Shown here: piece by piece, positions 40,676 through 64,000 of the stretch
Numbering within the stretch: the first letter of the stretch is position 1
How the letters are laid out: each line of letters begins with the position of its first letter
Assembly: GCA_964489525.1 (NCBI GenBank)
Contig: CAZAYY010000012.1
Location: forward strand, 65,320-129,319
Source of the DNA: an uncultured Anaerolineales bacterium
GTDB taxonomy: Bacteria; Chloroflexota; Anaerolineae; Anaerolineales; JABWBV01
DNA: 64,000 nucleotides
Reading direction: 5' to 3'
The notes under the pieces: generated by a model
Told to the model about the DNA's origin: nothing
What the model saw: only the letters and a program-made list of their open reading frames with translations
Databases searched by the model: none
Made by a program: the position numbers and the translations under genes

Positions 40676-40715
40676 AAGGATACCCTCATTCTGGGCCGTT
40701 TATTTGAAACAGCCG

Positions 40716-41732: not shown

Positions 41733-41787
41733 AATAACACCTCCAATCCTTCGAAATGCTGGAAGGATTTGAACGGTAAATCAAGAA

Positions 41788-42609
41788 TCATCGCGTTCCT
41801 TTCTGCGCGGGCGGGGCCACCAGTTCCCAATCCCCGGGTTCTCCTGTCAGATGGCAGCTTGTGCAGGCCTTGATGTCGTAGATGTTGGCCTTCAAATGCA
41901 CCGCTAACATGGCATCGGGTTGGTGGTCGTGGCATCCAAAACAAGTGTGCGTATCATACGAATCAATGTGGCAAGAAACACACTGCTGCGTTGTATCTGA
42001 ACCGTGATCCAGGTGAAAAGTGTGGCGGGTGAGTAAGGCTGGTTTCCAGGCTTGGAGCGTGTGGCAGCGCACACAATCCAACCCAAAACGGTCTTTGTGA
42101 ACCTCGGGCTGCTCATGGCAAGCCGAGCAGCGGTGGGGGTCATCCACCACAACATTTAAGAACTCTTCTTCAAGGGCCATTTCAACCAGGGCATACGCTT
42201 CCACTTGACGCTCGCCAGCCAGGGCTTCGACCAGATTCCAGTTCACATTTTGAATGAAAGTAACCAACTGTTCAATTTGTAGGTCACTCAAAATGCCGCC
42301 CTTGTTGGTGTGCCAGGCAGCCATAACCGAGCCATGCGCAGAACGGGCAATAATCTGAAAAAGAGCGTCCGGGTCGGCATCCGCAAGGTAAGGGGAGTTA
42401 AGCGGCGGCATATCCCCAATCCCCTCGCCATACAGCCCGTGGCAAGACACGCAGTTATCCATATACACCACAGCCGCCTCAGCAATATGCTGTTTGCGCA
42501 CTTCTTCCATGGCAATGGCAATCCGTTGGCCTTCTTGCAAGGCATACAAAGGCAGCAAAATGAGGAATCCAAGCAGTCCGAGTGCTGTAATCCAGGAATA
42601 TCGGTTCAT
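41788..42609 (-). CDS. Membrane-anchored c-type cytochrome: class-I monohaem domain fused to a 5-haem module (6 CxxCH)
   Basis: TM helix. CVSCHGLYGEG...M class-I-like domain. Then CSACH, CVRCH, CVSCH, CFGCH and CTSCH. Confidence 0.9.
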   Translation of the reverse strand: MNRYSWITALGLLGFLILLPLYALQEGQRIAIAMEEVRKQHIAEAAVVYMDNCVSCHGLYGEGIGDMPPLNSPYLADADPDALFQIIARSAHGSVMAAWHTNKGGILSDLQIEQLVTFIQNVNWNLVEALAGERQVEAYALVEMALEEEFLNVVVDDPHRCSACHEQPEVHKDRFGLDCVRCHTLQAWKPALLTRHTFHLDHGSDTTQQCVSCHIDSYDTHTCFGCHDHQPDAMLAVHLKANIYDIKACTSCHLTGEPGDWELVAPPAQKGTR

Positions 42610-42618
42610 GGCACCCTC

Positions 42619-43185
42619 CTACCCATACACCAACTGGTCGGGCGAGAAGTGGTCGCGCCGCCGTAAGTAAGAAGTATCGACATACACTTTGCCGCTGTCA
42701 ATTTTGACGGTGTATAAATCTAAGGCCCGGTGAAGGGTAGTTTTTTCTGAATTTCCGTAAAAATCAAAAGCCGAAGCGTGGCAAGGGCAAAGGAATTTGC
42801 CTTCATCGGAAGAATAATTAACTGTGCAGCCCAGGTGGGGGCAGCGGCGGTAGACGGCCATAAACCCGCCATCCGCCGCCCGCACCAAGTAAAAACCTGC
42901 TACTGGAAAATCGGTCACCGAACCAGGGCTAAAGCTATCCACAGTCCCAACGTCCACCTGCCGGGCAACCCGGCTTTCTCCGGTTTGCGGTTTGAGATAC
43001 ATCAGGCCAATGCCGATGAGTTCAACAGCAGCCGCAACACCCGCCAGTTTCAAAAATTCTTTGCGGTTAATGCGCAGCTTCTTCCGAGGTTCTGAAATCG
43101 GGTGGGATACCATAGCTTCCAAACCCTGGATTTCTTCAGGGTCCATATCGGTTGTTGGGGTAGGTTTACTGTTAAGCGTTTGCAT
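42619..43185 (-). CDS. Rieske [2Fe-2S] subunit of a cytochrome bc-type complex
   Basis: AGGAGG RBS. Tat-like NRKEFLKLAG plus a TM helix. Cluster boxes CPHLGC and CPCHAS. Confidence 0.9.
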   Translation of the reverse strand: MQTLNSKPTPTTDMDPEEIQGLEAMVSHPISEPRKKLRINRKEFLKLAGVAAAVELIGIGLMYLKPQTGESRVARQVDVGTVDSFSPGSVTDFPVAGFYLVRAADGGFMAVYRRCPHLGCTVNYSSDEGKFLCPCHASAFDFYGNSEKTTLHRALDLYTVKIDSGKVYVDTSYLRRRDHFSPDQLVYG

Positions 43186-43202
43186 TTTTCACCTCCTGTC
43201 CA

Positions 43203-44558
43203 TTAAGAAAATGGCAGGATAAGAGCCATATTCGCGCCTCGGAAGAAGACGCCAATGATGGTCAGCGCCACCAGGCTGGAAAACTCGAACATAAATAAAC
43301 CCAACAATGCTTCCGAGCGGTTTGCCCGTAAAAGCCTGAATAAACCATAAACCAGGGCCAGCAGCAAAACCGCGACCGCAAATGGAATCACTCCATTCGC
43401 AACCAGGGGATTCAGGGTTGGGAATAGTTCCGGAATTTCGAGCCAGTATTCATCGGCAATCACCAGCAAGGGAATCAGGTTGAAGGCCAGCAGCGCGCCC
43501 AGGGCAAAAGTCCACCTGCCGGTTTTTGACCGGAAATAGATACCAGTGCTTTGATCCTGTCGATCGTAATAAGGAAGCAGTACTGCCATCAAGGTCACCA
43601 AAATCACCAGTGCCATGGCTGCTCGAGCATCCATATGCAGCAGCAGTTCTTGAAGTCCCATGAAATACCAGGCAGCTTTGGCCGGGTTTGGAGAAGAAAG
43701 GGGGTCGGCAACAGCCAACAACGGGGCTGGAAACTGCGTTCCGATTAAGAAAACCCCAAAAGCCACCAGAACCATAATCCCCAGCTCTTTCTGAACCAGG
43801 TTTGGAATGGTGGTTACCTGTTCGGTGATTTCGCCTGGCTTTGAAGGGGGGTGGCTGATTCCACCCGATTTGCGAATTTTCCAAAAGTGGTAGCTCATCG
43901 TTGCCACCAACAAAACTGGCAGCACAGCCACATGAATCGCATAAAAATTCCGCAAGGCCGCCTGGCCAAGATCCGGCCCGCCCAACAAAAAATGAGACAG
44001 AGAATCTCCAGCGAATGGAATGTACTGAACCAGGCTGGCCGCAACAGTTACCGCCCAATACGAAAGCTGGTCCCAGGGCAGCAGGTAGCCAGTGAAATTG
44101 AAGCCAAGAACGATGAACAGCAAAACCATCCCAATCACCCAGTTGAAAGCCCGTTCTTTAACATGGCTGCCCGTCAAAAAGACCCGCAGCAAATGGAGCA
44201 CCACCACAAACACCAGGATGTTTGCAGACCAATGGTGAATGGCGCGAATCAGCGAGCCAAACATCACCTGTGATTCAATCATCTGGATGCTCTGGTAAGC
44301 CCGATCCACACTGGCATCATAGCGGAACATGAGCAAAACCCCGGTAGAAATCAGGACAAGTGTCAGAAAGGTGGCAATCCCACCCAGACCCCAGGTATAG
44401 GTAAAACGCAAAGCCGGGACTGGGACGCGGGTGGGGTGCAGATGTAAAATGACGTTATTTAGAACTTCTCGCAAGCGGCTGCGTTCTTCTTCTGCTGAAA
44501 TGGCAGCCTGGTCTCGCCCAGGAGTACTGGTTTTATTCAAAGGAAGATTGGTATCCAT
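43203..44558 (-). CDS. Cytochrome b (fused b6-like N-domain plus subunit-IV-like C-domain plus extra helices)
   Basis: Helix B H-x13-H (IHHWSANILVFVVVLH) and helix D H-x14-H (IHVAVLPVLLVATMSYH). The Qo-loop region PAKAAWYFMGLQELL sits at the position of the PEWY motif. Confidence 0.9.
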   Translation of the reverse strand: MDTNLPLNKTSTPGRDQAAISAEEERSRLREVLNNVILHLHPTRVPVPALRFTYTWGLGGIATFLTLVLISTGVLLMFRYDASVDRAYQSIQMIESQVMFGSLIRAIHHWSANILVFVVVLHLLRVFLTGSHVKERAFNWVIGMVLLFIVLGFNFTGYLLPWDQLSYWAVTVAASLVQYIPFAGDSLSHFLLGGPDLGQAALRNFYAIHVAVLPVLLVATMSYHFWKIRKSGGISHPPSKPGEITEQVTTIPNLVQKELGIMVLVAFGVFLIGTQFPAPLLAVADPLSSPNPAKAAWYFMGLQELLLHMDARAAMALVILVTLMAVLLPYYDRQDQSTGIYFRSKTGRWTFALGALLAFNLIPLLVIADEYWLEIPELFPTLNPLVANGVIPFAVAVLLLALVYGLFRLLRANRSEALLGLFMFEFSSLVALTIIGVFFRGANMALILPFS

Positions 44559-44570
44559 ATAAGCCCTCGA

Positions 44571-46118
44571 TTATTGGGTAACCAACAAAGGAATAAAAAC
44601 TTTAAAGTTCACTGGTACTTCTGTACCCAAATATAAAAAAGCACTGCCAACCAGGTCAAAATTGACCCGATAAACTGGAGCGCCAACAACCAGGTCGGCA
44701 TGGTTGTCTAGGTCCAGGTCGGTGCCGCCAGAAAACGTAAAACCAAAGGATGCGTCAGCCTTGTTGCCCAGCCCGCGCCAGAGCACACTGACACCCAACC
44801 CACCGGGATAGCCTGCGAAAGCATAGATGGCGCCCTGGTCTGGTTTGTCGCCATCAAACATGGATGCACCCACAAAAACGTCGGGAAAACCATCCTGGTT
44901 GACATCGCCAGCGCTTCCAACAGAACAGCCAAACTGGGAGCCGCCCTGCGGGAAGATGTAACTCCAGACCGGGATGGGGAAAAGTCCATCGCCACTGCCT
45001 AGATAAAAATAAGCGGCGCCCTGGTTCACCAACTGGCTGCTGTGATAGGGCTCACCAATGATTAAGTCCGCATAACCATCCTGGTTGACATCCCCTGCCC
45101 CCGCTAAAGCATAGCCAAACTGAGCTCTATCCTCCTGCCCATAAACAACCTGGGCGGGTGTTTCTGCCAGGCCATTTTCGCCACCCAGGTAAACATAAAC
45201 TGCACCCACCTGAACCGTTTGCGTCACATAATAGGGTGCGGCGATGGCGACATCGGTATAACCATCCTTGTTCAGGTCCCCCACCCCGGCCACCACCATC
45301 CCAAAGTCAGCGCCAGCTTGCCCGCCATACACAACCCAATCCGGCTCAAATGGCAGACCGCTGGCAGAACCATAGTAACCAAAAACTGCGCCTGCTTTAA
45401 GCCCTGAAAGCGGGGACGTAAAATTGGGAGCGCCGATCATCACATCGCCAAAACCATCCTTGTTGACATCACCGGCACTGGCCACAGCATATCCAAATTG
45501 TGCACTTTTGGTGTTGGATTCCACCCGCCAATCCGGGGTGAGTGCAGGCGTTCCAGGTTGGCCGTAGAACAGGTATGCAGCGCCTTCCTCAGCTTCCGGG
45601 TTTGTGGTGCTGGGAGCCCCGATCAGAATATCATCCCGGCCATCCCCGTTAACATCCTGCACAATCGCCAGGCTGCTGCCATAGCGCGAGCCCTGCTGCT
45701 CGCCAGCCGTTTGCCAGGAAGCCGCGTTTCCCGGACCGGAAGGGCCGCTCAGGTATAGGAAAGCCCGGCCTTCGCGGTACACCTGGTCGGTCATTTTCGC
45801 GGCACCCACCAGTAAATCGGCCCGGCCATCACCGTTCACATCGCCTGTGATGCTGACTGCGCTGCCAAATTCATCGCCATTGCTCTCGCCGCTTTGCGAC
45901 CAAACGGGGGTCAGGGAAAAGCCCGCCAGGGTTTGGTTTTGAGACAGGGAAAGGCTTGCGCTTTCAGGAGCAGCGCCCGCCAGGGAAGGGTGAGAAAACC
46001 CGAACGCCAAAAGCACAACCAGGCTCAGCCAGACCCAGGCGGTTGGGCGGGAATGGGTATTTTGGGAAGGGGTTAAGGGGGTTGGGTTCATCAGGTTGTG
46101 CTTTTGGCTGTCTTGCAA
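44571..46118 (-). CDS. Secreted FG-GAP (integrin-alpha-like) beta-propeller repeat protein
   Basis: Signal peptide. About 7 repeats of FG..V...GDVNxDGxxDxxxGAP. Only 12 nt upstream of cytochrome b. C-terminal tail NFKVFIPLLVTQ. Confidence 0.85.
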   Translation of the reverse strand: MQDSQKHNLMNPTPLTPSQNTHSRPTAWVWLSLVVLLAFGFSHPSLAGAAPESASLSLSQNQTLAGFSLTPVWSQSGESNGDEFGSAVSITGDVNGDGRADLLVGAAKMTDQVYREGRAFLYLSGPSGPGNAASWQTAGEQQGSRYGSSLAIVQDVNGDGRDDILIGAPSTTNPEAEEGAAYLFYGQPGTPALTPDWRVESNTKSAQFGYAVASAGDVNKDGFGDVMIGAPNFTSPLSGLKAGAVFGYYGSASGLPFEPDWVVYGGQAGADFGMVVAGVGDLNKDGYTDVAIAAPYYVTQTVQVGAVYVYLGGENGLAETPAQVVYGQEDRAQFGYALAGAGDVNQDGYADLIIGEPYHSSQLVNQGAAYFYLGSGDGLFPIPVWSYIFPQGGSQFGCSVGSAGDVNQDGFPDVFVGASMFDGDKPDQGAIYAFAGYPGGLGVSVLWRGLGNKADASFGFTFSGGTDLDLDNHADLVVGAPVYRVNFDLVGSAFLYLGTEVPVNFKVFIPLLVTQ

Positions 46119-46194: not shown

Positions 46195-49100
46195 TTACCG
46201 GGTGAAGGGCAGGTATACCCTGTAAAGCGTGTCTGCCACCAGCAAAGGCTGCCAGGCATCCACAGACCAGTTGCCCTTAGCATCTTTCGCCCGGAATTTG
46301 ATGATGTGCAAGCCTGGGCTGAGGCCCCACTGGTTGGGGTTCATGGCAAAACCAGGCTGGTTGCTCATAAGCCCGTCATGGGAGGAAGTCCACTCGTATT
46401 CCACAATGCCGCCACTCAGCTGGTCACAATCCTTGGCAAAGCCCTGGAAATAGACCAGGTCGGTCGTGGCAAGTTCTATGGAAGTTGGAGCAACCACAAT
46501 CCGGGCGGTGGGTACAATCTCGATGGCTTCGTTGTAATATACCCGGCGGTACCACATGTCGCTGTTGGTCACCACTTCTTCGGCGTCTTCATTCCATTGG
46601 TTCCAAACCGCATAGAAGAATGTGCCGCCCGGGTTGGCCACCAGCGCCGCCTCTCCAGAAAGATCGTCCTGGTTGTTTTCAAGCCAGTCAAAGGATTCGC
46701 GATAAACGCCGTTGGCATCTGGAATGTCTGCAAGCACAATGTCATCATAGTTGTCGCCCCAGTCGGAAGCCCGGCTGTAATACAGGTTCAACGGGGTGGC
46801 TTCGCCAAGGGTAACCGTGGTATTGTCGCCGGTTTCATACACCACGAAGAACTTGCTGGGGTCTCGCTCATCATCGGTATAGCGATACTCCGTCTTCAAC
46901 GTATCCGAGAAAATTGCCGGAGCGGTGGGGCTGTAGCGGGGATCCAGGATGGTGATCTTGGTGCCAATAAGCTGTGAAACGTTGCGGGCGGGTTCAAAAG
47001 CGCCTACCCCATAGCAGGTTTCTACCGACAGTTCACTTTCGCCATCAGGGATATCCAGGTAGTTTTCAACGTGGCACGGGCCGATATCGTCTCCCAGCCC
47101 AAGTGGGGTGGTTGTCCAGGTCTGCCCGCCGTCGAAGGAGCGGCGAATGTACAGGTTGTATTTGTCATTTCCAACCGAGTTAGCCATCCAGTTGGGCGAC
47201 CAGGCGTAAAGCACCATGACAAAATCACCATCAATGAAACCACGGTGGCCTTTGGCAATGTCGTAGGGGTTTTCCCAGGTCTGGTCATCCAGGTTTTCTG
47301 CTGTCTGGTCCCAAACGGTCACCTTCGGGAAGGGGGATACGCCGCCATCCCACGGGAAGGCTTGAATGCATTGAGCCGGGTCGGTGCCATCTCCACCCGC
47401 TGGCAGGTTGGTACAGCGCTCAATGCTGGTTCCAGACAGGTTGGTGGGTGTCGAAAGGCAGATGCCACCGGGGTAGTTCGGGTTGATTGCTGCATGGACG
47501 GTTTCGGTGGTGTAGCGGGTATCGGTGATCGGCACATAGTCCCAGATATCACAGGCCATGTTCTCAAAAGCAAAGGGGTTATCGAGCATGGGGTCAAATT
47601 CATCTGGAATGACCAGCCGGCGCATGTAGATATCGGCCGGGCCGCCCTGGTTAATGATGCCCTGCTTGTAGAGCAAGATTGCCGAGGTTTTTTCCACTGA
47701 GTTCAACGTGGCTTTTCCAGATTGGACAATCAGGCTGAAACGCCGGGCAATTTCGGTTTCGTAAAATGCGTTGCCCCAGTCATCCAACTGAAGCTCAAAG
47801 AAATCTCCTGTTTCTGGGTCGGAAGAAGGTTGGTTGAGGATATGGCCTCGGCTGACCAGGTCGGGTTGGAACATGTCGAAGCTGTGGTACCAGATATTCT
47901 TACCGATATCAATGGGTTCCACTTCCAACTCGCTCGATCCTTCACCTAATGCTTTGGTTTCTTCGTAGGCAATCAGCACCCAGGCGCTGGTTCGGGTGTC
48001 GTAGATGGGTTCGGTAATCTCGACGGTATAGGTGATGCCTGAGGTATCGGTGAGAGTAACGGTCTGGGTGATTTCGCCAATGATGGTGTCATAATCATAG
48101 GTGGTGTACCCTTGCAAGCCAATCCGGGGTCGCGAAGCGCCCACCCGCCCTACCAGGGTGCGGCCATCTTCCGTCACGCAAACATTCTTGGGCTGGCCGC
48201 CGGGGTTAAGCCACTCTACTGTGGATGCACAGTACTCAAGAATTCCATCTCCGTTGAAGTCGTGGTGGCAATAGGGGTCTTCGGTCAAAGAGGTGGCATC
48301 ACAAAAGTCGTTGTCGGTCAGGCGAACCGGAACTTCCATGAGCACACCCACTTTGGGCAGGGTTCCTTCCGGATCATAAACATATTCAATCGGGTCGGGG
48401 ATGTTTTCCAGGTTCTCGGTGGTCGGGTCGTCCACCAGGGCAAAATCATCCCAACCAATATAACTGTACCAGACATCGGTTTTGGCGTTGACAATCGCAC
48501 CGCTCCAACCCTCGCCTGGGCCAAGGCCCTGGCCGGGCCGCAGGCCTTCGGGGTCTTCCTGCCAGGTGACAATAAAGCCAGCGCCTTCCACGCCTTTAAC
48601 TTCAATCCGGTGTGCATCCCGGCGTCCAGAGGTCAGGCGTTCGGCTTTGCGCCAAATCATGTCATAATAGGAGGTGCCATCTTCCCGGGTGATTTGCTCC
48701 AAGGTGCCTCGGGCTACCCAAACACAGCCATAAGGGATTTCGCCTATTTCAGGAAAGCCCTGTAGGGTGTAATCTACTGATTTTTGGGTACCCATCACGC
48801 CAAACAGATCTTTTTCCGGATAGATGGTATAGGCGGGCAGGCCGCCATCACAGTAGCGGCTGATCCAGGCCACCATCGCGTACCGCCCGGTAATGGCGAA
48901 TTCACGCGAAACGCCCAGTTCCAGGTAGAAAACATCACCGGGGTAGGGTATGCCATCCACGGTGAATGAGCTCAGATGGGCTGAATCTGACAGGTTGTAG
49001 TTCTTCCAGGTGGCGCCATCGTCCAGCGAGAGAGCGGCAAAGGCATCCCGTGCACCAAAACCAAGGCCGCTGCGCACTTCTTCCTCGTGTTCAATACCAT

Positions 49101-49386
49101 CAATGTATGCGCTCAATAAAGGCCGGGCATAGTCGCGGGTTTCAATCACCGTTTCTGTGTCGGAAAGCAAGACGGTGTACTCAATGGTGGTCAGGCTGCC
49201 ATCGGCTTTTTGGGCTGGGACATAAAAGTTCATCATACCCACAGCGGCTTCCTCGGTTTCACCGTCGGGTGTTCTGGAGACGTTTCTGCGAAACATCACG
49301 CCATCATCACCCAGGGCTGAACCGGTGACAAGGCCGAGGGCCAGGACAACCATGAGCACTGCAAATAATACGGTTTTCGGTTTCAT
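46195..49386 (-). CDS. Large secreted protein with BNR/Asp-box motifs and a C-terminal Ig/PKD-like domain
   Basis: Signal peptide. Two Asp-boxes (SLDDGATW, SFDGGQTW). C-terminal beta-sandwich-like region. Tail YRVYLPFTR. No further family recognised. Confidence 0.7.
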   Translation of the reverse strand: MKPKTVLFAVLMVVLALGLVTGSALGDDGVMFRRNVSRTPDGETEEAAVGMMNFYVPAQKADGSLTTIEYTVLLSDTETVIETRDYARPLLSAYIDGIEHEEEVRSGLGFGARDAFAALSLDDGATWKNYNLSDSAHLSSFTVDGIPYPGDVFYLELGVSREFAITGRYAMVAWISRYCDGGLPAYTIYPEKDLFGVMGTQKSVDYTLQGFPEIGEIPYGCVWVARGTLEQITREDGTSYYDMIWRKAERLTSGRRDAHRIEVKGVEGAGFIVTWQEDPEGLRPGQGLGPGEGWSGAIVNAKTDVWYSYIGWDDFALVDDPTTENLENIPDPIEYVYDPEGTLPKVGVLMEVPVRLTDNDFCDATSLTEDPYCHHDFNGDGILEYCASTVEWLNPGGQPKNVCVTEDGRTLVGRVGASRPRIGLQGYTTYDYDTIIGEITQTVTLTDTSGITYTVEITEPIYDTRTSAWVLIAYEETKALGEGSSELEVEPIDIGKNIWYHSFDMFQPDLVSRGHILNQPSSDPETGDFFELQLDDWGNAFYETEIARRFSLIVQSGKATLNSVEKTSAILLYKQGIINQGGPADIYMRRLVIPDEFDPMLDNPFAFENMACDIWDYVPITDTRYTTETVHAAINPNYPGGICLSTPTNLSGTSIERCTNLPAGGDGTDPAQCIQAFPWDGGVSPFPKVTVWDQTAENLDDQTWENPYDIAKGHRGFIDGDFVMVLYAWSPNWMANSVGNDKYNLYIRRSFDGGQTWTTTPLGLGDDIGPCHVENYLDIPDGESELSVETCYGVGAFEPARNVSQLIGTKITILDPRYSPTAPAIFSDTLKTEYRYTDDERDPSKFFVVYETGDNTTVTLGEATPLNLYYSRASDWGDNYDDIVLADIPDANGVYRESFDWLENNQDDLSGEAALVANPGGTFFYAVWNQWNEDAEEVVTNSDMWYRRVYYNEAIEIVPTARIVVAPTSIELATTDLVYFQGFAKDCDQLSGGIVEYEWTSSHDGLMSNQPGFAMNPNQWGLSPGLHIIKFRAKDAKGNWSVDAWQPLLVADTLYRVYLPFTR

Positions 49387-49805: not shown

Positions 49806-52736
49806 ATGGAGCGGATCGTGATCAACCTGTTGGGTTCGTTTAACGTCCTGGCAGGCGGCCAAAAAATCAACGACGATTTTCGAACCAGCAAAGAGCGTGC
49901 CTTACTGGCTTATCTGGTTGTTGAGCACCAGCAGGTTCACTTACGAGATGCTTTGGCCGAAATGTTCTGGCCAGGCAAGCCGCCCGGAAGCGCCCGTACC
50001 AATTTACGACAGGCTCTGACGGGTATCCGCCAGGTTTTGACGCAGGGGTTGAACAACCTGGACAACCATCTGATTGTGAACAATGAGAGTGTGCAGCTGC
50101 ACCTGGGGGGGCAGATCCAGGTAGATGCACTCACGTTTGCCGGGCAAATTCATCATGCAGGTCATCATACCCACCTGGAGTTAAGCCAATGCCCAAAATG
50201 CCTGGCCGAGTTAGAAGAGGCCGTGGCTGCATACCAGGGAAATTTTCTTGAATCCTTTTTCCTGCCAGACAGCATTACATTTCAAGAATGGATTACCTAT
50301 CAACGCGAGTATTACAACCGCCAGCTTGGCTCTGCCCTCTGGATGTTAATAAGTGCCCACAAAAAGCGTGTGGATTTTGAGCGGGTCGAGCAGTATGCAG
50401 CCCAAATGAACCGCTTTTTCCCCCTGGAAGAATTTGGCTACCGCGAACTGATGGAAGTGTATGCGGCCACAGGAAGAAGGAACGCCGCCCTGGAAAAATT
50501 TTCTGAATGCGCAAACCTGATGCAGCGTGAATTGGGCATTGAACCTTCTGGGGAAACCCAGGCTCTGTACGAAAAAATCAAAAGAAATCCGGACACAAGA
50601 CCCCTGGCGCAAACCAGAGAGCCACCCGCTGCCCGGATTCCCACGGGTGAGTCACCTGTAAAAACGAACCTACAAGCACCCCTGACCAACTTTTTTGGCC
50701 GTCAAAAGGAATTGAACCGGCTTGCCACCTACCTGGAAAGCCCAAACTGCCGGTTGATCACCATTTTAGGGATTTCAGGCGTTGGCAAAACCCGGCTGGC
50801 CCTGGAAGCAGCCCGGAAAAACGGCCATTTGTTTCCTGATGGGGTTTGGATTGTGTTTTCAAACGAACTCCGAAAGTCGCGCTTCCTGGCGGATACCTTG
50901 CTGCAAACCATGGGGGTTTATATTGCAAACCCGAACGATGTCAAAGCTCAGCTGGCCAGGGTGCTGCAAAACCAGCAGGCACTTTTGGTTTTGGATGGGT
51001 TTGAATTGCTTGAAGACCAGATCCAGCTTGTTTTGGATCTGTTGAGCCAGGCACCCAGGTTAAAAATTTTACTCACCTCTCGGGTACACCTGAACACAAA
51101 AGCCGATTACCCGATCATTCTGGGCAGCCTGGATTACCCGCCCCAAACTACTCAATCCAAAACACTCCAAATTAACGATTATCCTGCCCTACAGCTTCTC
51201 CACGACCGGGCATATCCGTTTTTGCTGCCAGAGCAAATTCCCCCTGCTCATATTCAAGAAATGGCAAAAATTTGCCAGGAGGTGGAAGGGCTGCCTTTAG
51301 CCATTGAACTGATTGCCGCCAACCTGGACGAATTCAGCTTTGGCGAAATCCTGGCCATGTTAGCGAACAACCAACTGCAGATCGAAACCCAACAGCTCGA
51401 TTTTCCAGACAAACACCGCAGTCTTGTGGTCGCGCTCAACAGCCTTTGGGAAAGTCTGTGCTCAGAATGCAAACAAAACGCCCCAAAATTGAACGTTTTC
51501 AAAAGCGGGTTCACATCCCAGGCCGCCCAGGCCTTAGGCGTGTCCAACCACACCCTGCAGCACCTGAGCAGTAAGTTCATTTTGCAAAAAGACATTCACC
51601 AGAGGTACCAGTTTCAACCCATGGTTCAGCGGTTAATCGTATCCATGTTCCCGGTCGCAGCCGAACAAGCCGAAAGGCATGCCCGGCATTACCTGGAATA
51701 CCTTCAAAAACACGAAATGGAACTGCTTTTTGGCTACCCAAACAGCCTTACTTACCTGGAAATCAAACAAGATATCGCCAACATTCGCCAGGCCATAGAT
51801 TGGGCCATCCTGAACACGAGGGCCGACCTTTTATCCCCCTCTCTGAACAGTATTTACGCCTACTATGATACCAGCAACCGTTTTCACGAAGGGGAAGGCC
51901 GGTTTGAAAGAATCAGCAAAGCCTTTGAAAGGCTGCCCCTCACTCCTGAAAACCAGCGCAGCCTGGGCATTGCCATGGGCTACCAGGCCTGGTTCAGCGG
52001 GCGCGGTGGTGCGCTGGAAAATGCCCTGGTAATGCTGGCAAGCAGCCTGGCCCTGCTTGAGGAGTTTGGAACCGAGAGCGACAAAACCTTCATCTATGTT
52101 GCCCTCAGCCAGCTGGAGCTGCGATCAGGGCAGTTTGCCTGGGCAAAAGAACATGCTGATCAGGCGAAAGCCCTGGCCATTCACTACTACCAACCACACT
52201 GGCGCTGGCTCAGTGAACTGACCCTGGCGCAAACTGCCCACCTGACCCACGAGAAAGAATCACCGGTCACAATCTACCTGGAGTGCCTTTCCGCATTTAA
52301 GAACTTAGGCTATGGGTTGGGATATATCCGTACCTTGCTGCTGCTTGCCCGGTACAACCTGGCCACAAACCAGGCGGAAATGGCAAAATCGCACCTGATG
52401 CAAGCCTGGGAATACATTAAAAGCCCGCAGGATACCTGGCTTTCAGCCATCCTGGAGTTGGAGTTGGGAAATGTCGAACTGCAGCAGGGGTTCATTGCCC
52501 AAAGCCAGCTTACCTTAGAGAAAAGCTACGCCTATTTTCAAGATGTGGGAGACAAATATCATATCAGCCTGGCTGCCATCAGCCTGGGCAATCTTTGGAC
52601 AAAACAGGGACAACTCGAAAAAGCCGAGATGTACTACCAGGAAGCCCTGGTTGCTGGCAACCAACAACAGCTGGAACCCATTACCCGAGAAGTTGAGCAC
52701 AGGCTGCTGAAATTGAGAGAATCCCCCACCCGATAA
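49806..52736 (+). CDS. SARP/BTAD-family transcriptional regulator fused to NB-ARC (STAND) ATPase and TPR repeats (AfsR-like)
   Basis: N-terminal winged-helix (SKERALLAYLVVE...) plus BTAD (...YRELMEVYAATGRRNAALEKFSECANLMQRELGIEPSGETQALYEKI). P-loop GISGVGKT, Walker B LLVLDGFE, and a TPR-like C-terminal half. Confidence 0.85.
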   Translation: MERIVINLLGSFNVLAGGQKINDDFRTSKERALLAYLVVEHQQVHLRDALAEMFWPGKPPGSARTNLRQALTGIRQVLTQGLNNLDNHLIVNNESVQLHLGGQIQVDALTFAGQIHHAGHHTHLELSQCPKCLAELEEAVAAYQGNFLESFFLPDSITFQEWITYQREYYNRQLGSALWMLISAHKKRVDFERVEQYAAQMNRFFPLEEFGYRELMEVYAATGRRNAALEKFSECANLMQRELGIEPSGETQALYEKIKRNPDTRPLAQTREPPAARIPTGESPVKTNLQAPLTNFFGRQKELNRLATYLESPNCRLITILGISGVGKTRLALEAARKNGHLFPDGVWIVFSNELRKSRFLADTLLQTMGVYIANPNDVKAQLARVLQNQQALLVLDGFELLEDQIQLVLDLLSQAPRLKILLTSRVHLNTKADYPIILGSLDYPPQTTQSKTLQINDYPALQLLHDRAYPFLLPEQIPPAHIQEMAKICQEVEGLPLAIELIAANLDEFSFGEILAMLANNQLQIETQQLDFPDKHRSLVVALNSLWESLCSECKQNAPKLNVFKSGFTSQAAQALGVSNHTLQHLSSKFILQKDIHQRYQFQPMVQRLIVSMFPVAAEQAERHARHYLEYLQKHEMELLFGYPNSLTYLEIKQDIANIRQAIDWAILNTRADLLSPSLNSIYAYYDTSNRFHEGEGRFERISKAFERLPLTPENQRSLGIAMGYQAWFSGRGGALENALVMLASSLALLEEFGTESDKTFIYVALSQLELRSGQFAWAKEHADQAKALAIHYYQPHWRWLSELTLAQTAHLTHEKESPVTIYLECLSAFKNLGYGLGYIRTLLLLARYNLATNQAEMAKSHLMQAWEYIKSPQDTWLSAILELELGNVELQQGFIAQSQLTLEKSYAYFQDVGDKYHISLAAISLGNLWTKQGQLEKAEMYYQEALVAGNQQQLEPITREVEHRLLKLRESPTR

Positions 52737-53243: not shown

Positions 53244-54383
53244 TTAAGGTTTTGCAGGCGTTTGTTCGGGAATTCCAGCGCCAGGCTCACCAGGAGTCTC
53301 TTCAGGCTGCCCCAGGGCGGGGTCGCCAATTGGTTCCTCGGGTTGACCTTCGCCGGGTTCACCAGGAATTTCTTCCGGAATGCCCTGTCCAGGGGTTTCA
53401 GGTGTGTCTTCGGGCTTACCCAGGCCGGGTTCGCCGGGCACATCCTCTGGTTTGCCCAGGCCAGGTTCACCGGGCACATCCTCTGGTTTGCCCAGGCCAG
53501 GTTCACCGGGCACATCCTCTGGCTTGCCCTGGCCTGGAGTGCCAGGAACTTCTTCAGGCTTGCCAGACGGGGAATCGGGGTTGACATTATTGTTCGGGCC
53601 TTCGCCATTGAAAACAGGTTCGCCTGGATCTTCGTTGGTGCGGTCGCGTGGCTGCTGTTCAAGCATGTTCATGGTGGGGTCCAGGTTGCCGTTGCCAGCC
53701 TGCAGCAGGCGCAGCCGTTCAATAACCATCTGTCGCACCTGGTTTAGCACAGGGCTGGGTGATTCTTTCTGATCCTGCAGCAGCCGCTCTTGCACCTGCA
53801 GGGCTTGCTGCAGCCGGATGGCAGCTTGTGCCTGGCCTTCTGGGCTGAGTTGGGCAGCATATTGGTAAGCCATTTCCAGGGTGTGGGTGGCCTGCTCCCC
53901 GGCGCTCGCTGGAATCTCAAGCCCGGCTTCTTGCAGGGCTAAAATCTCCATGGTGCGCAGTTCAGAGAGGTGCAACATGCGCTGAAAACGGGCATCATCA
54001 TTGAAGGTGAGGGCAAGGGCAATGTCTTCAGTCAGGGTTTTGACAGGGTATAGAGGTTCGCCGGGCAGGCTGTCTTGGGCCGCATAGGCTGTGGCGCCAG
54101 CGCCACCCAGGGCGAGAACAAAGGCTACGAGAATTGAAGTTAAGAGGGGTACCATTTTATGCTCCTTTCGCATAGGGTTCCAAAAAGAAAACAAAGAAAC
54201 CAGGAATGAGCGGCTGGCCGGGCGAAGCGCATGCGGCGCAGGAAGATGTTCCAATTCATCCAGGAAAGCAGCCCGTTTTTGTGCAGCGATTTCCGGGTTT
54301 CGGGCCGGGGTGGTTTTCGCAAGGGGAGCGAAAAGTTCCCGGGCTTCATCGTCAGACATGGGGGGGGTGTTGAAGGGGTTCAT
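53244..54383 (-). CDS. Anti-sigma-factor-like membrane protein with DUF5667-like domain and repetitive Pro/Gly/Glu tail
   Basis: 4-nt overlap with the ECF sigma gene. Single TM helix (VPLLTSILVAFVLALGGAGA). LPGEPLYPVKTLTEDI block typical of DUF5667. C-terminal 9 x 12-aa repeats. Confidence 0.7.
   Translation of the reverse strand: MNPFNTPPMSDDEARELFAPLAKTTPARNPEIAAQKRAAFLDELEHLPAPHALRPASRSFLVSLFSFWNPMRKEHKMVPLLTSILVAFVLALGGAGATAYAAQDSLPGEPLYPVKTLTEDIALALTFNDDARFQRMLHLSELRTMEILALQEAGLEIPASAGEQATHTLEMAYQYAAQLSPEGQAQAAIRLQQALQVQERLLQDQKESPSPVLNQVRQMVIERLRLLQAGNGNLDPTMNMLEQQPRDRTNEDPGEPVFNGEGPNNNVNPDSPSGKPEEVPGTPGQGKPEDVPGEPGLGKPEDVPGEPGLGKPEDVPGEPGLGKPEDTPETPGQGIPEEIPGEPGEGQPEEPIGDPALGQPEETPGEPGAGIPEQTPAKP
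53247..53564 (-). repeat. In-frame tandem repeat, 9 x 36 bp (GKPEDVPGEPGL-type), three central copies near-identical
   Basis: The protein tail reads GKPEEVPGTPGQ, GKPEDVPGEPGL x3, GKPEDTPETPGQ, GIPEEIPGEPGE, GQPEEPIGDPAL, GQPEETPGEPGA, GIPEQTPAKP. Confidence 0.85.
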
Positions 54384-54919
54384 TCTACCTCCTGGGGGTT
54401 CAAGATCCGGCGCAGTGCGCTGAGCCCACGATGCTGCAGGGCTTTGATCGCCCCAACAGGCTTTTCCAGGACTTCAGCAACTTCTGCTTGCGACCAGCCT
54501 TCTAAAAATCGCAGGGTGACTACCTGGCGCTGCTCTGGGGTGAGCATGCGCAGGGCCTGGCGAAGGTTTTCGGCTTGCATCTCTCGGGCGGCTTCCTCCG
54601 CGGTGGATAGCTCGGCAGGGAGATGGGCTGCGTTTTCTAATTGGGTTTCACCAGGATGGTTTCTGCGATAGTAATCGTTGATCCAGTAGTGAGCAATCTG
54701 GTAGAGATAGGCTCTCAGGTATTTTTCTGGCCCACCGCCGCGCTGGATCGCATGTAAAAAACGGCGGAAGGTCTCGGCCACGCAGTCCTCGGCCAGCAAA
54801 GGGTCACCCAAAAGACGGGCAGCGTAGCGATACAGTTCAGGATTGTAGCGGTCGTAAATTTCTGCCAGGGTTTGGCGGTCAAATTTCCGGGCTTTTTCCA
54901 GCAGTTCTTGTTCCAACAT
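54380..54919 (-). CDS. ECF-type RNA polymerase sigma-70 factor
   Basis: Start at MLEQELLEKA (54919) with an AAGGAAGGA RBS. Region 2 (EIYDRYNPELYRYAARLLGD..AEDCVAETF) and region 4 (LTPEQRQVVTLRFLEGWSQAEVAEVL). Confidence 0.85.
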   Translation of the reverse strand: MLEQELLEKARKFDRQTLAEIYDRYNPELYRYAARLLGDPLLAEDCVAETFRRFLHAIQRGGGPEKYLRAYLYQIAHYWINDYYRRNHPGETQLENAAHLPAELSTAEEAAREMQAENLRQALRMLTPEQRQVVTLRFLEGWSQAEVAEVLEKPVGAIKALQHRGLSALRRILNPQEVE

Positions 54920-55116
54920 GCTCGTTCCTTCCTTGCTGGAGGGGATGATGCTTTCTCCGGTATGTATTGTAATAGATGGTCTGGCAAATTGGGTAAACAT
55001 AATCTTTTCGAGTGAACTTTTGCTTTTATAATATATGACGAGCAGGCACCAAAAAAGATATGGTTTCCAAAAAAGTTCCCTCAAAACTGCTCACCCAAGT
55101 TCATAGGAGGATCCCA

Positions 55117-55356
55117 ATGGGCAAGATAACCATCGAGTTTTGCGTGGTTTGAAACTACACCCCAAGAGCCGTCAGTTTGGCGGACGAACTTCTGCGAAAA
55201 TTTGCTGAGAAACTTGAATCCCTTACGCTGGTGCCATCGGATGGGGGCAGGTTTGAAGTGACCCTGGATGACGAGACCCTTTTTTCGAAAAAATCCCTGC
55301 ACCGCCATGCCGAACCGGGCGAAATTGCCGGGTTGGTTGGCAAACTCTTGATGTAA
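55117..55356 (+). CDS. SelW/Rdx-family thioredoxin-fold protein with in-frame TGA (probable selenocysteine, CxxU)
   Basis: AGGAGG RBS 6 nt upstream of ATG 55117. Translation is MGKITIEFCVV[TGA@55150]NYTPRAVSLADELLRKFAEKLESLTLVPSDGGRFEVTLDDETLFSKKSLHRHAEPGEIAGLVGKLLM. The pattern matches the Rdx family, with TGA at the second redox position. Confidence 0.7.
55163..55194 (+). promoter_or_regulatory. Candidate bacterial SECIS hairpin
   Basis: Starts 11 nt after the UGA. Upper stem CCGUCA/UGGCGG (55169-55174 / 55178-55183) with a GUU apical loop. Imperfect lower stem (55163-55168 / 55189-55194) with a 3' bulge. Confidence 0.35.
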
Positions 55357-55412
55357 CCGGGATAAACGGGGGATGGATTGCGCACAGCTGCATGGGTATA
55401 ATCCGCTTACCC

Positions 55413-56885
55413 ATGCAGAAAACTCCATTTCTTTCCTCCCTGCCCAGGCTAAATCGCTTCTCCCGGCTTGCCCAGGTGCTTGGCCTGGCTGTGCTCCTGG
55501 GTTTAGGATCCGTTGGGGTTGGCTGGGCAAGGCAAGGCCACACCGGGCCTCAGCCTGCTTCCACCCATTCCACATCTGCTCTGGAATTTTTTGTCAGCCC
55601 AACGGGAGGGCCTTCTGGCGATGGCTCATTGGAAAACCCATGGGATTTCAAGACTGCCATTGCCCCTCACCCCGCCATCCAGCCCGGCTCCACCATTTGG
55701 ATGCGCGGCGGCGTATACAGCGGCGGCCCGTACACCAGCCGCCTGAACGGAACCCTGGCCCAACCCATTCATGTTCGCCCATACCAGAACGAGCATGTGA
55801 TTCTGGATGCCTCTTTACTCGTGGATACCTCGGCAGAGTTTTTCCAGGTTTACAGCAACCACACCTGGTATTGGGACATTGAAAGCACCATCCTCAGCCC
55901 TCTTCCCAGAATCGGCGGCGACAACCTGGAAGTCTCCGGGATGGGCAACAAGTTGATCAACTGGGTCATCCACGATACGGCAAACAACGCCTTTGGCCGG
56001 TCGGGCAACGAGATTTATGGCAGCATCCTGTACAACAATGGGGTAGACGGCAATTCCGGGCTGCACCAGCTTTATGTCCAAAACCCCGACCCCAATTTTC
56101 CAACCGTCCTCCGGGACAACATCGTCTTCAACGCCTACGAGTTCGGGATTCATGCCTACGCCAGCGGCAGCGGGCAAATTAACGGGGTGCAGGTGGTTGG
56201 CAATGTACTCTTTCAAAATGGGGCCGCCAAAACCGTGCGCAACCTTAAAGACAATATCATCTTCGCCGGAATCAACGGCCTATCCCAAATTATCCTGCAA
56301 GAAAATATGACCTGGGCCACCGGCCCCAATGTGCGCAGCCTGGCCCTGGGGCGCTATTGGAACCTGAACCACGATATTACCCTCACCAACAACTATATTT
56401 ATGGGGACACCTGGTTTGCCAATCCATTCGAATCTGTCACCATGAATGGCAACACTTTTTACAACCCGCCCAGAGGAATCAACACCGTCCTGTATCCAAA
56501 CAACACCTACCTGACCACCGCCCCAACCAGCAATAAAATTTTCATCCGCCCCAACGTGTATGAACCCAAACGGGCACACATTGTGGTCTATAACTGGCAA
56601 AACCTGGATTTCGTTTCGGTGGACCTTTCTGGTGTGCTGTCCCCAGGCGATTGGTACGAAATTCGGAATGCCCAAAATTTTTATGCGCCGCCATTGGTTA
56701 TTAGCAAATATACCGGGGGCACAATCCAACTGCCCATGAGCGGGCTTAGCCCTGCCCAACCTACCGGCCCCGGGCTGATTGAAAACGTGGAAATGACTGG
56801 AAAGGCTTTTAACGTATTCGTGCTGCTGCCCCGCCAACCCATTGAAACCTTTTATGATATCTATCTACCCCTGGTAGCCCGTTGA
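55413..56885 (+). CDS. Secreted right-handed parallel beta-helix (pectate-lyase-fold) repeat protein
   Basis: Start at MQKTPF (55413). Signal peptide. Repeated ...N.I..N... beta-helix rungs (NKLINWVIHDTANNAF, GSILYNNG, LRDNIVFNAY, GNVLFQNG, LKDNIIFAG). C-terminal tail FYDIYLPLVAR. Confidence 0.7.
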   Translation: MQKTPFLSSLPRLNRFSRLAQVLGLAVLLGLGSVGVGWARQGHTGPQPASTHSTSALEFFVSPTGGPSGDGSLENPWDFKTAIAPHPAIQPGSTIWMRGGVYSGGPYTSRLNGTLAQPIHVRPYQNEHVILDASLLVDTSAEFFQVYSNHTWYWDIESTILSPLPRIGGDNLEVSGMGNKLINWVIHDTANNAFGRSGNEIYGSILYNNGVDGNSGLHQLYVQNPDPNFPTVLRDNIVFNAYEFGIHAYASGSGQINGVQVVGNVLFQNGAAKTVRNLKDNIIFAGINGLSQIILQENMTWATGPNVRSLALGRYWNLNHDITLTNNYIYGDTWFANPFESVTMNGNTFYNPPRGINTVLYPNNTYLTTAPTSNKIFIRPNVYEPKRAHIVVYNWQNLDFVSVDLSGVLSPGDWYEIRNAQNFYAPPLVISKYTGGTIQLPMSGLSPAQPTGPGLIENVEMTGKAFNVFVLLPRQPIETFYDIYLPLVAR

Positions 56886-56987
56886 CCCGCCCATCCCGAT
56901 CTTCCGCTGCAAATGGTAATATAATGACAACCAACCGCAGGTCCGAACCATGCCCTTGAATCATCCTGTGGTGTATCTGGAGGAATC

Positions 56988-57449
56988 ATGCGTCTTGTAA
57001 TCCAACGTGTACAGCGAGCCCAGGTTTCTGTATCCGGCGAAGTCATTGCGGCCATTGGGCCGGGGATGTTAATCCTGGTGGGGGTTGGGCATGGCGACGG
57101 GGAAGAACAGGCCCGTTTTCTGGCAGAAAAAGCCGCCACCCTGCGCATTTTTGAGGATGACCAGGGCAAAACCAATCGCGCTCTACTGGATGTGCAAGGG
57201 GAAGCGCTGGTGGTTTCGCAGTTCACCCTGTACGCCGACACTCGCAAAGGCCGCCGGCCTTCGTTTACCGACGCGGCGCTGCCAGAAGCAGCCGCCCCAC
57301 TGGTGGAGCGGTTTGCAGAAATCCTGCAAGGGTTGGGGGTTCCGGCAAAAACCGGTGTTTTTGGAGCGTATATGCAGGTGGAATTGGTCAACGATGGCCC
57401 AATGACCATTTTATTAGAACGTGGGCCAGGGACCGCGCCACAAAACTAA
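56988..57449 (+). CDS. dtd: D-aminoacyl-tRNA deacylase
   Basis: MRLVIQRV...[10 protein letters not shown]...[15 protein letters not shown]...NDGPMT motifs in ~150 aa. Confidence 0.9.
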
Positions 57450-61543: not shown

Positions 61544-64000
61544 TCAGGAAACGCCGCTGAAATAATCCTGGACGAGGCGGTTGATGAAAATATATCCACC
61601 GCCCACACGGCGCAAAATCGCCAGGTCGGTTGCGTGCTCCAAGAACCCGGCCAGGTTCCAGGGCACACCCTCCAACCACAAGAAAAGGCGCAAGAACAGG
61701 TGGTTGACAGCACCCGAACCGCCAAAGCCAAAGAACCGGGCCAGAAAAATCATCCCGGCCTGGATAATTCCAAAAGAAGCGTCTGGGGCATACAGGGGAC
61801 CAAACCCCCAAAACAATACCCCGAGGGCAGCACCAGTAACCACACCTGCCTGAAAATCGGCCCGGAGCGAGATCCAGGTAGCCTGGTTGGGTCTGCTGGT
61901 GCGTTCAATCCGGCGGCCGCGCAGCCCACCCGTCACAAAAAAGACCAGGGTCCAGGGCATCACCCACAGCATCACTGCCAACGGTGCAGGGTAAGTCCAT
62001 TCCGCGAGATCATCGGGAAACATCAATAGTTGAAGCAGGCCAAACAAAAGCCCGATGATTAAACCAATCGGTGCCTGGCGCAGCGCTTCGCGCCACGACC
62101 ACTGCAGCGATTCGCCCAACTCAATCAGACCGCGCAGGCTGATATTGCTGTTGCTAAAGCCAATGGTGTAAAACGCCCCCTGCCAGATTGCAATAAACAA
62201 GGTTTCTTCCAGGGTTGAGCCACCCAAATTGAGATAAATGATGGTAACCAGTGTGGCAAGAACACCCATGCCTGCGGCTCGCAGCCATTTGAGCCGGGCG
62301 CTGATTTGCGCGGGTTTCCCCATCCGGTCCCACCACTCTGCAAGGCCAATTTGAAGGGGGATGAAAACTGCGGCAATGACCAGGTTGATTTTTAGCAATA
62401 CCCACAGGCTGGCCAGTGTACCTGTCAGCAAAGGCTGTGTACCCGGGATCAGGGTAAAGCCAAACGAGATCAATACCAGCAAATTGAGCATCGTAGTGAC
62501 CAGGCAAACCAACAAGGTGCTGGCCGCAGCAAACCCCCAACGCAGCCATTTCTTCTGAATCCAGGATGGCTGAAGTGCCTCCACCAGGAAAACCGCCTGG
62601 TTTGAGGTGGTCATATTGTGGGCAAGCCACTTAAGCAGTGCATCGGTTTTCTCATTGTCATGGGCAAACACAGTCTGGCGGCGATAGCCCCGGTGAACAT
62701 ACGCTTCAATCAGGCGCTGGCGGCGCGAGTGGCCAGCATTGGCTGCCAGGCTGACAGGGGTGAGGCCGGTTTTTTCTAACGCGGCAGCCTCGTCCCGGTA
62801 GGCGCTGCGCATAATGTTCAACCACAGAGGTGTTTTTGCCAGCCCGGCCAGTTCAGTGTCTTGAGATATCAAGGTCTTTAACCCGGCAGCGTACAAACCC
62901 TGGGTGGTCAGGTATTGATTTACCTGGTCGGGCTGCAAGGGCATCAGTTCGATCGCCCCACCCATGCGCAGTTTTACTTTCGCATTCTGGTAATCGCCCT
63001 GGCGCGTTGTAATCACCAGGCCTGCCAGGCCGCGGCTTTTGCGAAATTCATTGATCGCCCGAATCGCTTGGGGCAAGATTGCATCGGGAATTTCATCCAA
63101 CCCATCTAACAGCAGCACCAGTTCGTTGGCTTCCAGCCAGGCCTTACCCATCACCCGGGGAATCTGGTACTTGGCGTTGAGTTCTTCAACCAACCAGTCT
63201 TCAAGCGAGCCGCGTTCCTCCGCCCAGGACGCCAACTGGAGCACAACCGGAACCGGTTGGCTGGAATCTTTCTGAGCGCGTTCCACCAGGTCACGAGCCA
63301 GCTTGAGCAAAGTGATGGTTTTACCGGTACCCGGCCCCCCTAAAATAAGCAAACTCCGGTCACTTTCTTGAAATAACTGCAAGGTATCTTTTGGAACCGG
63401 TTCCTCTTCGCCAGAATCACCCCCTAACCCACCCCAAGGGCGCTCCACCCAGGCGTTGGCAGGTCGTTTATGCAGTTCGATCAAGGCACCACTTGGAATA
63501 GACTGTTCTAAAACGCCATTGACCCAAAAATTCTTGACCTTTTCGAGCAGAATGTGCTGATTGCGGCGTTCCGCAGGGGACGGCTGAGCCTCAGTTTGTG
63601 CCGGGCGAGGGGCAAGCAAGGTGGGCAATGGCGGGGTGAAAGCCGTTTGAGCAGGGGCCTGGACAGGCTGGTTTTGCAGAATTGCCTCAAGGCGGGCAGC
63701 CACCATCCGGGCGCTGCCCAGGCGCAGTTCGAGTGGTTTTTTCAGCATCTGGTTAATCAATTCGGCCAGGGCTGGCGGACAATCGGGCCGGTAGGCAAGA
63801 ATATCCTGCGGGGTTTGGGTGAGAATGGCGGTGATGATTGCGGCGACGCTTTCCCCCTGGAAGGGCTTGACGCCTGCCAACATTTCGTAAAGCATCACCC
63901 CAAAAGACCAGATATCCGCCCGGCTGTCGAGTATCTCTCCGCCGCAGGCCTCTGGGCTGAGATAGTTGATGGTGCCCACAATCATGCCCGACTGGGTGAG
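61544..64000 (-). CDS. Ser/Thr kinase - NACHT (STAND) NTPase - polytopic membrane domain protein (5' end outside window)
   Basis: The frame stays open to the window edge. Kinase subdomains VIII-XI (GTINYLSPE, DIWSFGVMLYEMLAG). P-loop GGPGTGKT and Walker B LLLDGLDE. About 8-10 hydrophobic helices. C-terminal LRRVGGGYIFINRLVQDYF wHTH-like tail. Confidence 0.8.
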   Translation of the reverse strand, partial: LTQSGMIVGTINYLSPEACGGEILDSRADIWSFGVMLYEMLAGVKPFQGESVAAIITAILTQTPQDILAYRPDCPPALAELINQMLKKPLELRLGSARMVAARLEAILQNQPVQAPAQTAFTPPLPTLLAPRPAQTEAQPSPAERRNQHILLEKVKNFWVNGVLEQSIPSGALIELHKRPANAWVERPWGGLGGDSGEEEPVPKDTLQLFQESDRSLLILGGPGTGKTITLLKLARDLVERAQKDSSQPVPVVLQLASWAEERGSLEDWLVEELNAKYQIPRVMGKAWLEANELVLLLDGLDEIPDAILPQAIRAINEFRKSRGLAGLVITTRQGDYQNAKVKLRMGGAIELMPLQPDQVNQYLTTQGLYAAGLKTLISQDTELAGLAKTPLWLNIMRSAYRDEAAALEKTGLTPVSLAANAGHSRRQRLIEAYVHRGYRRQTVFAHDNEKTDALLKWLAHNMTTSNQAVFLVEALQPSWIQKKWLRWGFAAASTLLVCLVTTMLNLLVLISFGFTLIPGTQPLLTGTLASLWVLLKINLVIAAVFIPLQIGLAEWWDRMGKPAQISARLKWLRAAGMGVLATLVTIIYLNLGGSTLEETLFIAIWQGAFYTIGFSNSNISLRGLIELGESLQWSWREALRQAPIGLIIGLLFGLLQLLMFPDDLAEWTYPAPLAVMLWVMPWTLVFFVTGGLRGRRIERTSRPNQATWISLRADFQAGVVTGAALGVLFWGFGPLYAPDASFGIIQAGMIFLARFFGFGGSGAVNHLFLRLFLWLEGVPWNLAGFLEHATDLAILRRVGGGYIFINRLVQDYFSGVS

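Follow-up and report, generated by a model that had tools for sequence, protein, structure and literature searches.

An in-frame UGA in a SelW-like (Rdx-family) gene of an Anaerolineales bacterium, with a conserved hairpin predicted to direct its reading as selenocysteine

The gene described here, found on the plus strand of a stretch of 64,000 nucleotides (hereafter called the window), is in all likelihood functional and encodes a SelW-like (Rdx-family) selenoprotein of 79 residues. The small doubt that this assignment carries is shared by three other readings, namely a relic gene, a UGA decoded as something other than selenocysteine (Sec) and an error in base calling. Gene finders miss the gene on account of its twelfth codon, a UGA that is in all probability decoded as selenocysteine. 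The features on which the assignment is based are collected in table 1.

Table 1. Features of the predicted selenoprotein gene, in positions of the window
Feature	Position	Strand	Basis
Shine-Dalgarno AGGAGG	55105..55110	+	read from the sequence; 6-nt spacer to ATG 55117-55119
CDS, predicted 79-aa SelW-like/Rdx selenoprotein, complete	55117..55356	+	translation; Pfam Rdx, NF041051, TIGR02174, PDB relatives 3DEX and 2FA8
Cys9 codon TGC, which opens the CxxU redox motif	55141..55143	+	Cys codon there in 56/56 Sec-type sequences
In-frame UGA, codon 12, predicted selenocysteine	55150..55152	+	TGA in 55/55 related Sec-type loci; aligns with second Cys of CxxC
Bacterial SECIS upper hairpin (predicted)	55169..55183	+	5' arm 55169-55174, apical loop GUU 55175-55177, 3' arm 55178-55183

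The frame translates as MGKITIEFCVV*NYTPRAV...GKLLM*, the residues from the TGA to the TAA stop codon (55354-55356) being NYTPRAVSLADELLRKFAEKLESLTLVPSDGGRFEVTLDDETLFSKKSLHRHAEPGEIAGLVGKLLM, and it is intact, with neither a frameshift nor any stop besides the TGA of codon 12. The redox motif C9-V-V-U12 stands directly after ITIEF, which forms the first beta strand. The initial annotation had read the same frame down to its TAA, with an AGGAGG ribosome-binding site 6 nt before the ATG, and both were reproduced here. It had also pointed out that the ORF track misses the gene; indeed, the standard ORF list reduces it to a piece of 59 residues (55177-55356, TTG start) and otherwise gives ORFs of the minus strand, the longest of which (55081-55575, 164 aa) has no match in Pfam. 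That the real product would be this 59-residue ORF or one of the minus-strand ORFs, the upstream part being non-coding, is hardly credible. These are the ORFs that the standard list contains, and many homologues in the public protein catalogue are likewise fragments of 60-62 residues, but the 59-residue piece lacks both strand beta1 and the redox motif and has no Shine-Dalgarno sequence before its TTG at 55177, the 11 residues preceding the TGA are conserved, with a cysteine that is invariant in all 56 sequences compared, and the 164-residue ORF of the minus strand matches no family.

The short fragments, which begin past the TGA, constitute most of the catalogue homologues. Entries of full length divide into true CxxC forms and 'CxxW' forms (CVPW, CAVW and others; P0001, P0002, P0006, P0012, P0062 and P0065) with tryptophan at the Sec position, evidently the outcome of gene calling with a table in which TGA specifies Trp. 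The product of the present gene was not found in the public protein catalogue in any form, while a neighbour from the same contig is present there.

To query family models, the 79-residue product was used with U replaced by C. It matches Pfam Rdx (PF10262) with 73.6 bits (cutoff 22.6, E = 1.5e-20) along profile positions 1-72 of 74, TIGR02174 (CXXU_selWTH) with 57.5 bits against a cutoff of 34.2, and NF041051 (SelT/SelW/SelH family (seleno)protein) with 88.4 bits, a borderline pass of its cutoff of 88. Four solved Rdx structures, 3DEX (SAV_2001), 2FA8 (Atu0228), 2P0G and 2OBK, align with residues 3-69 (E from 3e-10 to 5e-7); their CxxC, which is CTQC in 3DEX and 2FA8, falls on C9..U12, and the same C9-V-V-U12 also aligns with the CVPC of Cys-type homologues. 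These structurally characterized proteins differ from the window product in having Cys in place of Sec, in being about 25 residues longer and in needing no recoding signal. The closest Rdx proteins in the collections searched are 63-68% identical, so that no close relative is found there. Membership of the Rdx/SelW family, as first proposed, is thus upheld by the full-length Pfam match and by both NCBIfam SelT/SelW/SelH models scoring above cutoff; the same match, together with conserved flanks on both sides, bears out the claim that the similarity continues past the TGA, and the alignment with CxxC homologues and solved structures places the TGA at the second redox position, as had been stated. 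A thioredoxin-like fold may be predicted for the product from its homology to the solved Rdx structures over residues 3-69.

We then compared the gene with its homologues in other genomes, taking one genome per species in the first scan, which yielded 42 related loci from Chloroflexota (Anaerolineae, Caldilineaceae), Acidimicrobiales, Nitriliruptorales, Gemmatimonadota, Dormibacterota, Proteobacteria and others. The homologous codon is TGA in every one of these 42 loci. When a Cys-type homologue was the query of a second scan, 20 loci were obtained: TGA is found in 19, 13 of which were new, and TGC in the remaining one, L043. Taken together, TGA occupies the homologous codon in 55/55 Sec-type loci, which belong to many phyla, Actinomycetota among them, and conservation of the protein extends to either side of it. 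In the set of 56 sequences formed by these loci and the window copy, a Cys codon lies three codons before the TGA without exception, with synonymous variation between TGC (45 sequences) and TGT (11), and the frame past the TGA runs for 60-77 codons until a stop. Cys-type (CxxC) homologues, represented by catalogue proteins P0003-5, P0007-11, P0013 and P0016 in addition to L043, provide Sec/Cys pairs. The classic hallmarks of a bacterial selenoprotein gene (PMC1088965) are pairs of this sort, conservation of the in-frame TGA and conservation of its flanks, and all of them are found here. The ratio of Sec to Cys forms, 55:1 in scans that are biased to Sec-type relatives, is in line with the reported rarity of Cys forms in organisms that use Sec (PMC1794560).

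TGA is nonetheless a normal stop codon in this genomic context: it terminates 13 of the 41 Pfam-supported genes of the window and is the terminal stop of 23 of the 56 family members themselves. The recoding of codon 12 must therefore be site-specific. The base following the Sec UGA is A in 35, C in 15 and G in 6 of the 56 Sec-type sequences, and never U, perhaps because a strong termination context is avoided or perhaps just because of which residue comes next (N/H/D/G/S). Three Sec-type copies (L022, L036 and L051) come from metagenome-assembled genomes labelled as Patescibacteria group, Melainabacteria and Bacillaceae, in which Sec use would be unusual; their presence could be due to mis-binning, to an alternative code or to genuine use of Sec.

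The same comparison bears on the possibility that the codon was misread in sequencing or assembly, the true codon being TGC or TGT and the product an ordinary CxxC protein of the Rdx family. A single base change would suffice, and the source looks metagenome-assembled; yet the nearest homologues have TGA at this codon in 55 cases out of 55, and what follows the TGA in the window is the Sec-type signature NYTPRAVSLADEL, accompanied by the hairpin, rather than the Cys-type DFRPQA... that comes without a conserved hairpin. We regard such an error as extremely improbable.

The hairpin that would specify this site-specific recoding has the sequence CCGUCA-GUU-UGGCGG, with a stem of 6 bp in which all pairs form, and its loop, starting with G55175 followed by U55176, is separated from the UGA by 22 nt (55153-55174). 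According to the published bSECISearch model of bacterial SECIS elements (bSECIS; PMC13188914, Fig. 2), the apical loop has 3-9 nt and the upper stem 4-16 bp, a G stands at the first or second loop position and is usually followed by G or U, the distance from UGA to apical loop is 16-37 nt, and the minimum free energy is -7.5 kcal/mol or lower. The window hairpin satisfies this geometry with its 3-nt loop, 6-bp stem, initial loop G followed by U and spacing of 22 nt. Its energy is -7.2 kcal/mol with the current ViennaRNA parameters, 0.3 kcal/mol above a search threshold of -7.5 that is heuristic and dependent on the parameter set. Compared with shuffled sequences, the folding energy is no better than chance (z = +0.55). 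In a context of 60 nt a competing fold has equal energy, structures containing the hairpin make up about 68% of the ensemble and these reach -10.7 kcal/mol, the family mean over nt 10-45 being -11.4 kcal/mol.

Strong support for the hairpin comes instead from the comparison of homologues. Over the six pairs in an ungapped alignment of the 55 homologous loci, 90.1% of the cells are paired, against 21-58% in slid controls in which the 3' partner was moved by 1-3 columns, and the observed covariation score was not attained in any of 500 column shuffles, with a similar result when the window is added. Changes on both sides that compensate each other occur in four of the six pairs. The pair 21-33 links the wobble positions of two codons and changes from C-G to U-A in five sequences, three of which encode Ala-Ala there and two Ala-Val; being synonymous, these switches cannot be ascribed to selection on the protein and leave pairing in the RNA as their only explanation. 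At locus L020 the peptide changes from Val-Ser-Leu-Ala to Ile-Gly-Gln-Met, yet every pair is kept. The loop G (column 26) does not vary among the 56 sequences, and G-U is present in 44 of them.

Cys-type genes served as a control, the set being small (seven genes, L043 and L063-L068) and drawn mostly from a single clade. On average, 3.7 of the six pairs are present in them, as compared with 5.4 of 6 in the TGA forms, and no gene has the complete set; moreover, just two of the seven have the loop G. The peptide encoded by the hairpin segment is variable in these genes (DFRPQAIATAEE...), whereas Sec-type members keep PRAVSLADEL. Since the hairpin sits within the codons for A-V-S-L-A-D, the same stretch carries both a protein message and an RNA-structure message. 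The SECIS-like hairpin of the initial annotation is thus corroborated as an element that is conserved and covarying in the TGA forms and is not conserved in the Cys forms.

Its extent requires some revision. The hairpin with a GUU loop had been drawn from 55163 to 55194, and the upper part (55169-55183) is indeed conserved, but the outer stem (55163-55168 with 55189-55194) weakens the fold from -7.2 to -5.5 kcal/mol and is paired in 47.9% of the cells across the family, against 91.1% for the upper stem, so that we do not include this outer, or lower, stem in the SECIS element. A covariance model, which had been suggested as a check, was built from the 55 homologous loci with the window excluded; it gave a single hit in the window, at 55150-55191, with 53.8 bits (E about 8e-11), while the second-ranking match scored 12 bits. 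This hit largely reflects homology and should be taken as consistency, not as independent proof. One subclade (L003, L009, L014, L015, L017-L019, L025 and L040) varies in the segment nt 14-32 after the TGA: with GTG-AGC-CTG, it loses two of the pairs that make up the family hairpin, and its members fold a hairpin about 5 nt nearer to the UGA, with the loop CGUGA and G-U still exposed, which may be an alternative register of the SECIS.

The integrity of both frame and hairpin also has to be weighed against the view that the gene is a relic, in which the Sec machinery has been lost from the lineage, the UGA terminates translation after 11 residues and the sequence is an early pseudogene. Loss of selenoproteins, including SelW-like ones, is common in bacterial evolution (PMC1794560), and no Sec machinery is seen within the 64-kb window. 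A relic is nevertheless very unlikely, considering that the frame, its Shine-Dalgarno sequence and its ATG are intact, the Pfam match extends over the full length, the hairpin forms all six pairs with G-U in its loop, and the window scores 53.8 bits on a model derived from homologues that look functional. The negative search for the machinery covered selA, selB, selD and tRNA-Sec, and a stretch of this size is too short for their absence to be informative. In the same window, Rfam gave no match at gathering thresholds and ARAGORN no tRNA, nor did the latter detect a tRNA-Sec in the 42 related loci; a search by regular expressions for TGA-interrupted redox motifs produced noise and no credible second selenoprotein, and the covariance model no second element. 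Selenoproteins have been reported in Chloroflexi (PMC1794560), as has a (8/4) tRNA(Sec) (PMC5389517), reports that bear on the lineage and not on this particular genome.

Alternatively, the UGA could be translated as an amino acid other than Sec, namely Cys by a tRNA(Cys) of the SelC* type with UCA anticodon, possibly with the help of a SelB paralogue, or Trp by low-level read-through with the near-cognate tRNA. Some anaerobic bacteria do possess SelC* tRNA(Cys), opal suppressors built as mimics of tRNA(Sec) (PMC5389517), and sequence cannot separate the insertion of Sec from that of Cys at a UGA followed by a SECIS. However, SelC* has been reported in Firmicutes, Thermodesulfobacteria, Nitrospirae and Proteobacteria but not in Chloroflexi, and always beside a complete Sec system (PMC5389517); genome-wide reassignment of UGA is excluded by the 13 of 41 genes that stop at TGA; and Sec is the simplest explanation for the retention of UGA and SECIS together in 55 species. 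We therefore consider decoding by another amino acid very improbable. Equally improbable is the broader case in which this poorly sampled, Anaerolineae-like lineage would decode the conserved UGA and hairpin without a canonical Sec system, either as Cys of the SelC* type through a SelB-like factor or by a non-standard (8/4) tRNA(Sec); if true, it would mean that recoding variants reach the Chloroflexota and the SelW-like family.

Insertion of selenocysteine, the recoding claimed in the initial annotation, is accordingly the reading favoured by family membership, the TGA of 55/55 loci and a hairpin that is conserved and covaries in TGA forms; the alignment with Cys- and Sec-containing Rdx homologues, another check that had been proposed, agrees with it through the 55 TGA loci and the CxxC forms that align with them. 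In the mechanism that we envisage, translation would start at ATG 55117 behind the strong Shine-Dalgarno sequence, and SelB carrying Sec-tRNA(Sec), a machinery that is assumed here, would bind the hairpin at 55169-55183 and deliver selenocysteine at the UGA of codon 12, after which the ribosome would read on to the TAA at 55354. The product would take the thioredoxin-like fold of Rdx proteins, with its Cys9-x-x-Sec12 redox centre placed at the start of helix 1, and would cycle between selenol/thiol and selenenylsulfide states as a thiol-dependent oxidoreductase.

The genomic neighbourhood contributes to the question of orthology. The Rdx gene is divergent from a gene for an ECF sigma factor (54380-55084, probably starting around 54919) and one for a DUF5667 protein, and is followed downstream by an ORF of 490-497 residues (55392-56885, +), dtd (D-Tyr-tRNA deacylase; 56988-57449, +; Pfam 186.5 bits) and a DHOD-like gene on the minus strand. 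In 17-19 loci of the Anaerolineae type, Rdx(Sec) is followed first by a class-I Trp/Tyr tRNA synthetase and then by dtd, so the 490-497-residue ORF takes the place of the synthetase. Because the dtd and DHOD-like neighbours are shared with Anaerolineae loci, the window copy can be considered an orthologue in a partly conserved neighbourhood. The neighbours offer no hint of function. The ORF at that place has no Pfam family and no relative in representative genomes, and its N-terminus contains a hydrophobic segment. A minus-strand ORF of 182 residues (56861-57409) is spurious, as synteny and Pfam place dtd on the plus strand. For the alpha-glucosidase encoded nearby, the catalogue contains a protein of 100% identity, the next best matches (about 70%) deriving from metagenome-assembled genomes of Anaerolineae and Chloroflexota.

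Other elements of the region were also noted. A perfect inverted repeat of 11 bp (55388-55418; CTGCATGGGTA / TACCCATGCAG, 9-nt spacer) lies 32 nt past the stop of the Rdx gene and overlaps two candidate ATG starts of the downstream ORF, at 55392 and 55413. It is not a classic terminator, given that no T-run follows it, and might occlude the start of this ORF. At the Cys-type loci L063-L067, the Rdx gene consistently and divergently adjoins the gene for a FAD-binding subunit of the CO/xanthine dehydrogenase family (FAD_binding_5, CO_deh_flav_C), with an MFS transporter next in most cases, a neighbourhood unlike that of the Sec-type genes. Elsewhere in the window, the minus strand contains a respiratory-type cluster (38567-46118) encoding two multihaem c-type cytochromes (c7/c3-like), a mono-haem cytochrome c, a Rieske protein and cytochrome b, after which come an FG-GAP repeat protein and an ORF of 1063 residues (46195-49386) without family match. 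Two large signalling proteins of the STAND type are encoded at 49806-52736 (+) and 61544-63985 (-); one has BTAD, NB-ARC and TPR domains and the other, which runs off the end of the window, a Ser/Thr kinase and a NACHT domain.

The paradigm of bacterial recoding elements is the SECIS of Escherichia coli fdhF, a short upper stem-loop within the coding sequence that exposes G-U in its apical loop for recognition by SelB; its loop is GGUC, with the loop G 19 nt after the UGA. Many members of the Rdx family have the loop GGUCU, resembling that of fdhF. The window element differs in having its loop G 22 nt after the UGA and a GUU loop of 3 nt, in the absence of a bulged U and of a conserved lower stem, and in being weaker (-7.2 kcal/mol). 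At the protein level, mammalian selenoprotein W also belongs to the Rdx fold family and has the CxxU redox motif seen in the window protein. Eukaryotic SECIS elements, in turn, are located in the 3' UTR and have a different architecture (PMC1088965), and the bacterial and eukaryotic branches of SelW appear to have evolved separately.

Descriptions of bacterial SelW-like selenoproteins with CxxU, a SECIS in the coding region and a conserved G in its loop date from 2004-2005, and with 48 genes they outnumbered every other selenoprotein family in the Sargasso Sea data (PMC1088965), which vindicates the initial view of SelW-like/Rdx proteins as a recurrent family of bacterial selenoproteins. The present gene shares with them a size of about 80 residues, the N-terminal CxxU, the UGA position and, directly after it in the coding sequence, a SECIS hairpin, and differs from them in nothing of kind. 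It is thus an ordinary further case of a family known since about 2004-2005, which leaves the understanding of selenoprotein biology unchanged. Its practical value lies in annotation, for calling the gene correctly adds one selenoprotein to this genome and implies that the organism uses selenium. The set of homologues, in addition, offers a clean example of dual coding, in which the PRAVSLADEL segment of helix 1 is held by the RNA hairpin in Sec-type members and drifts freely in Cys-type ones.
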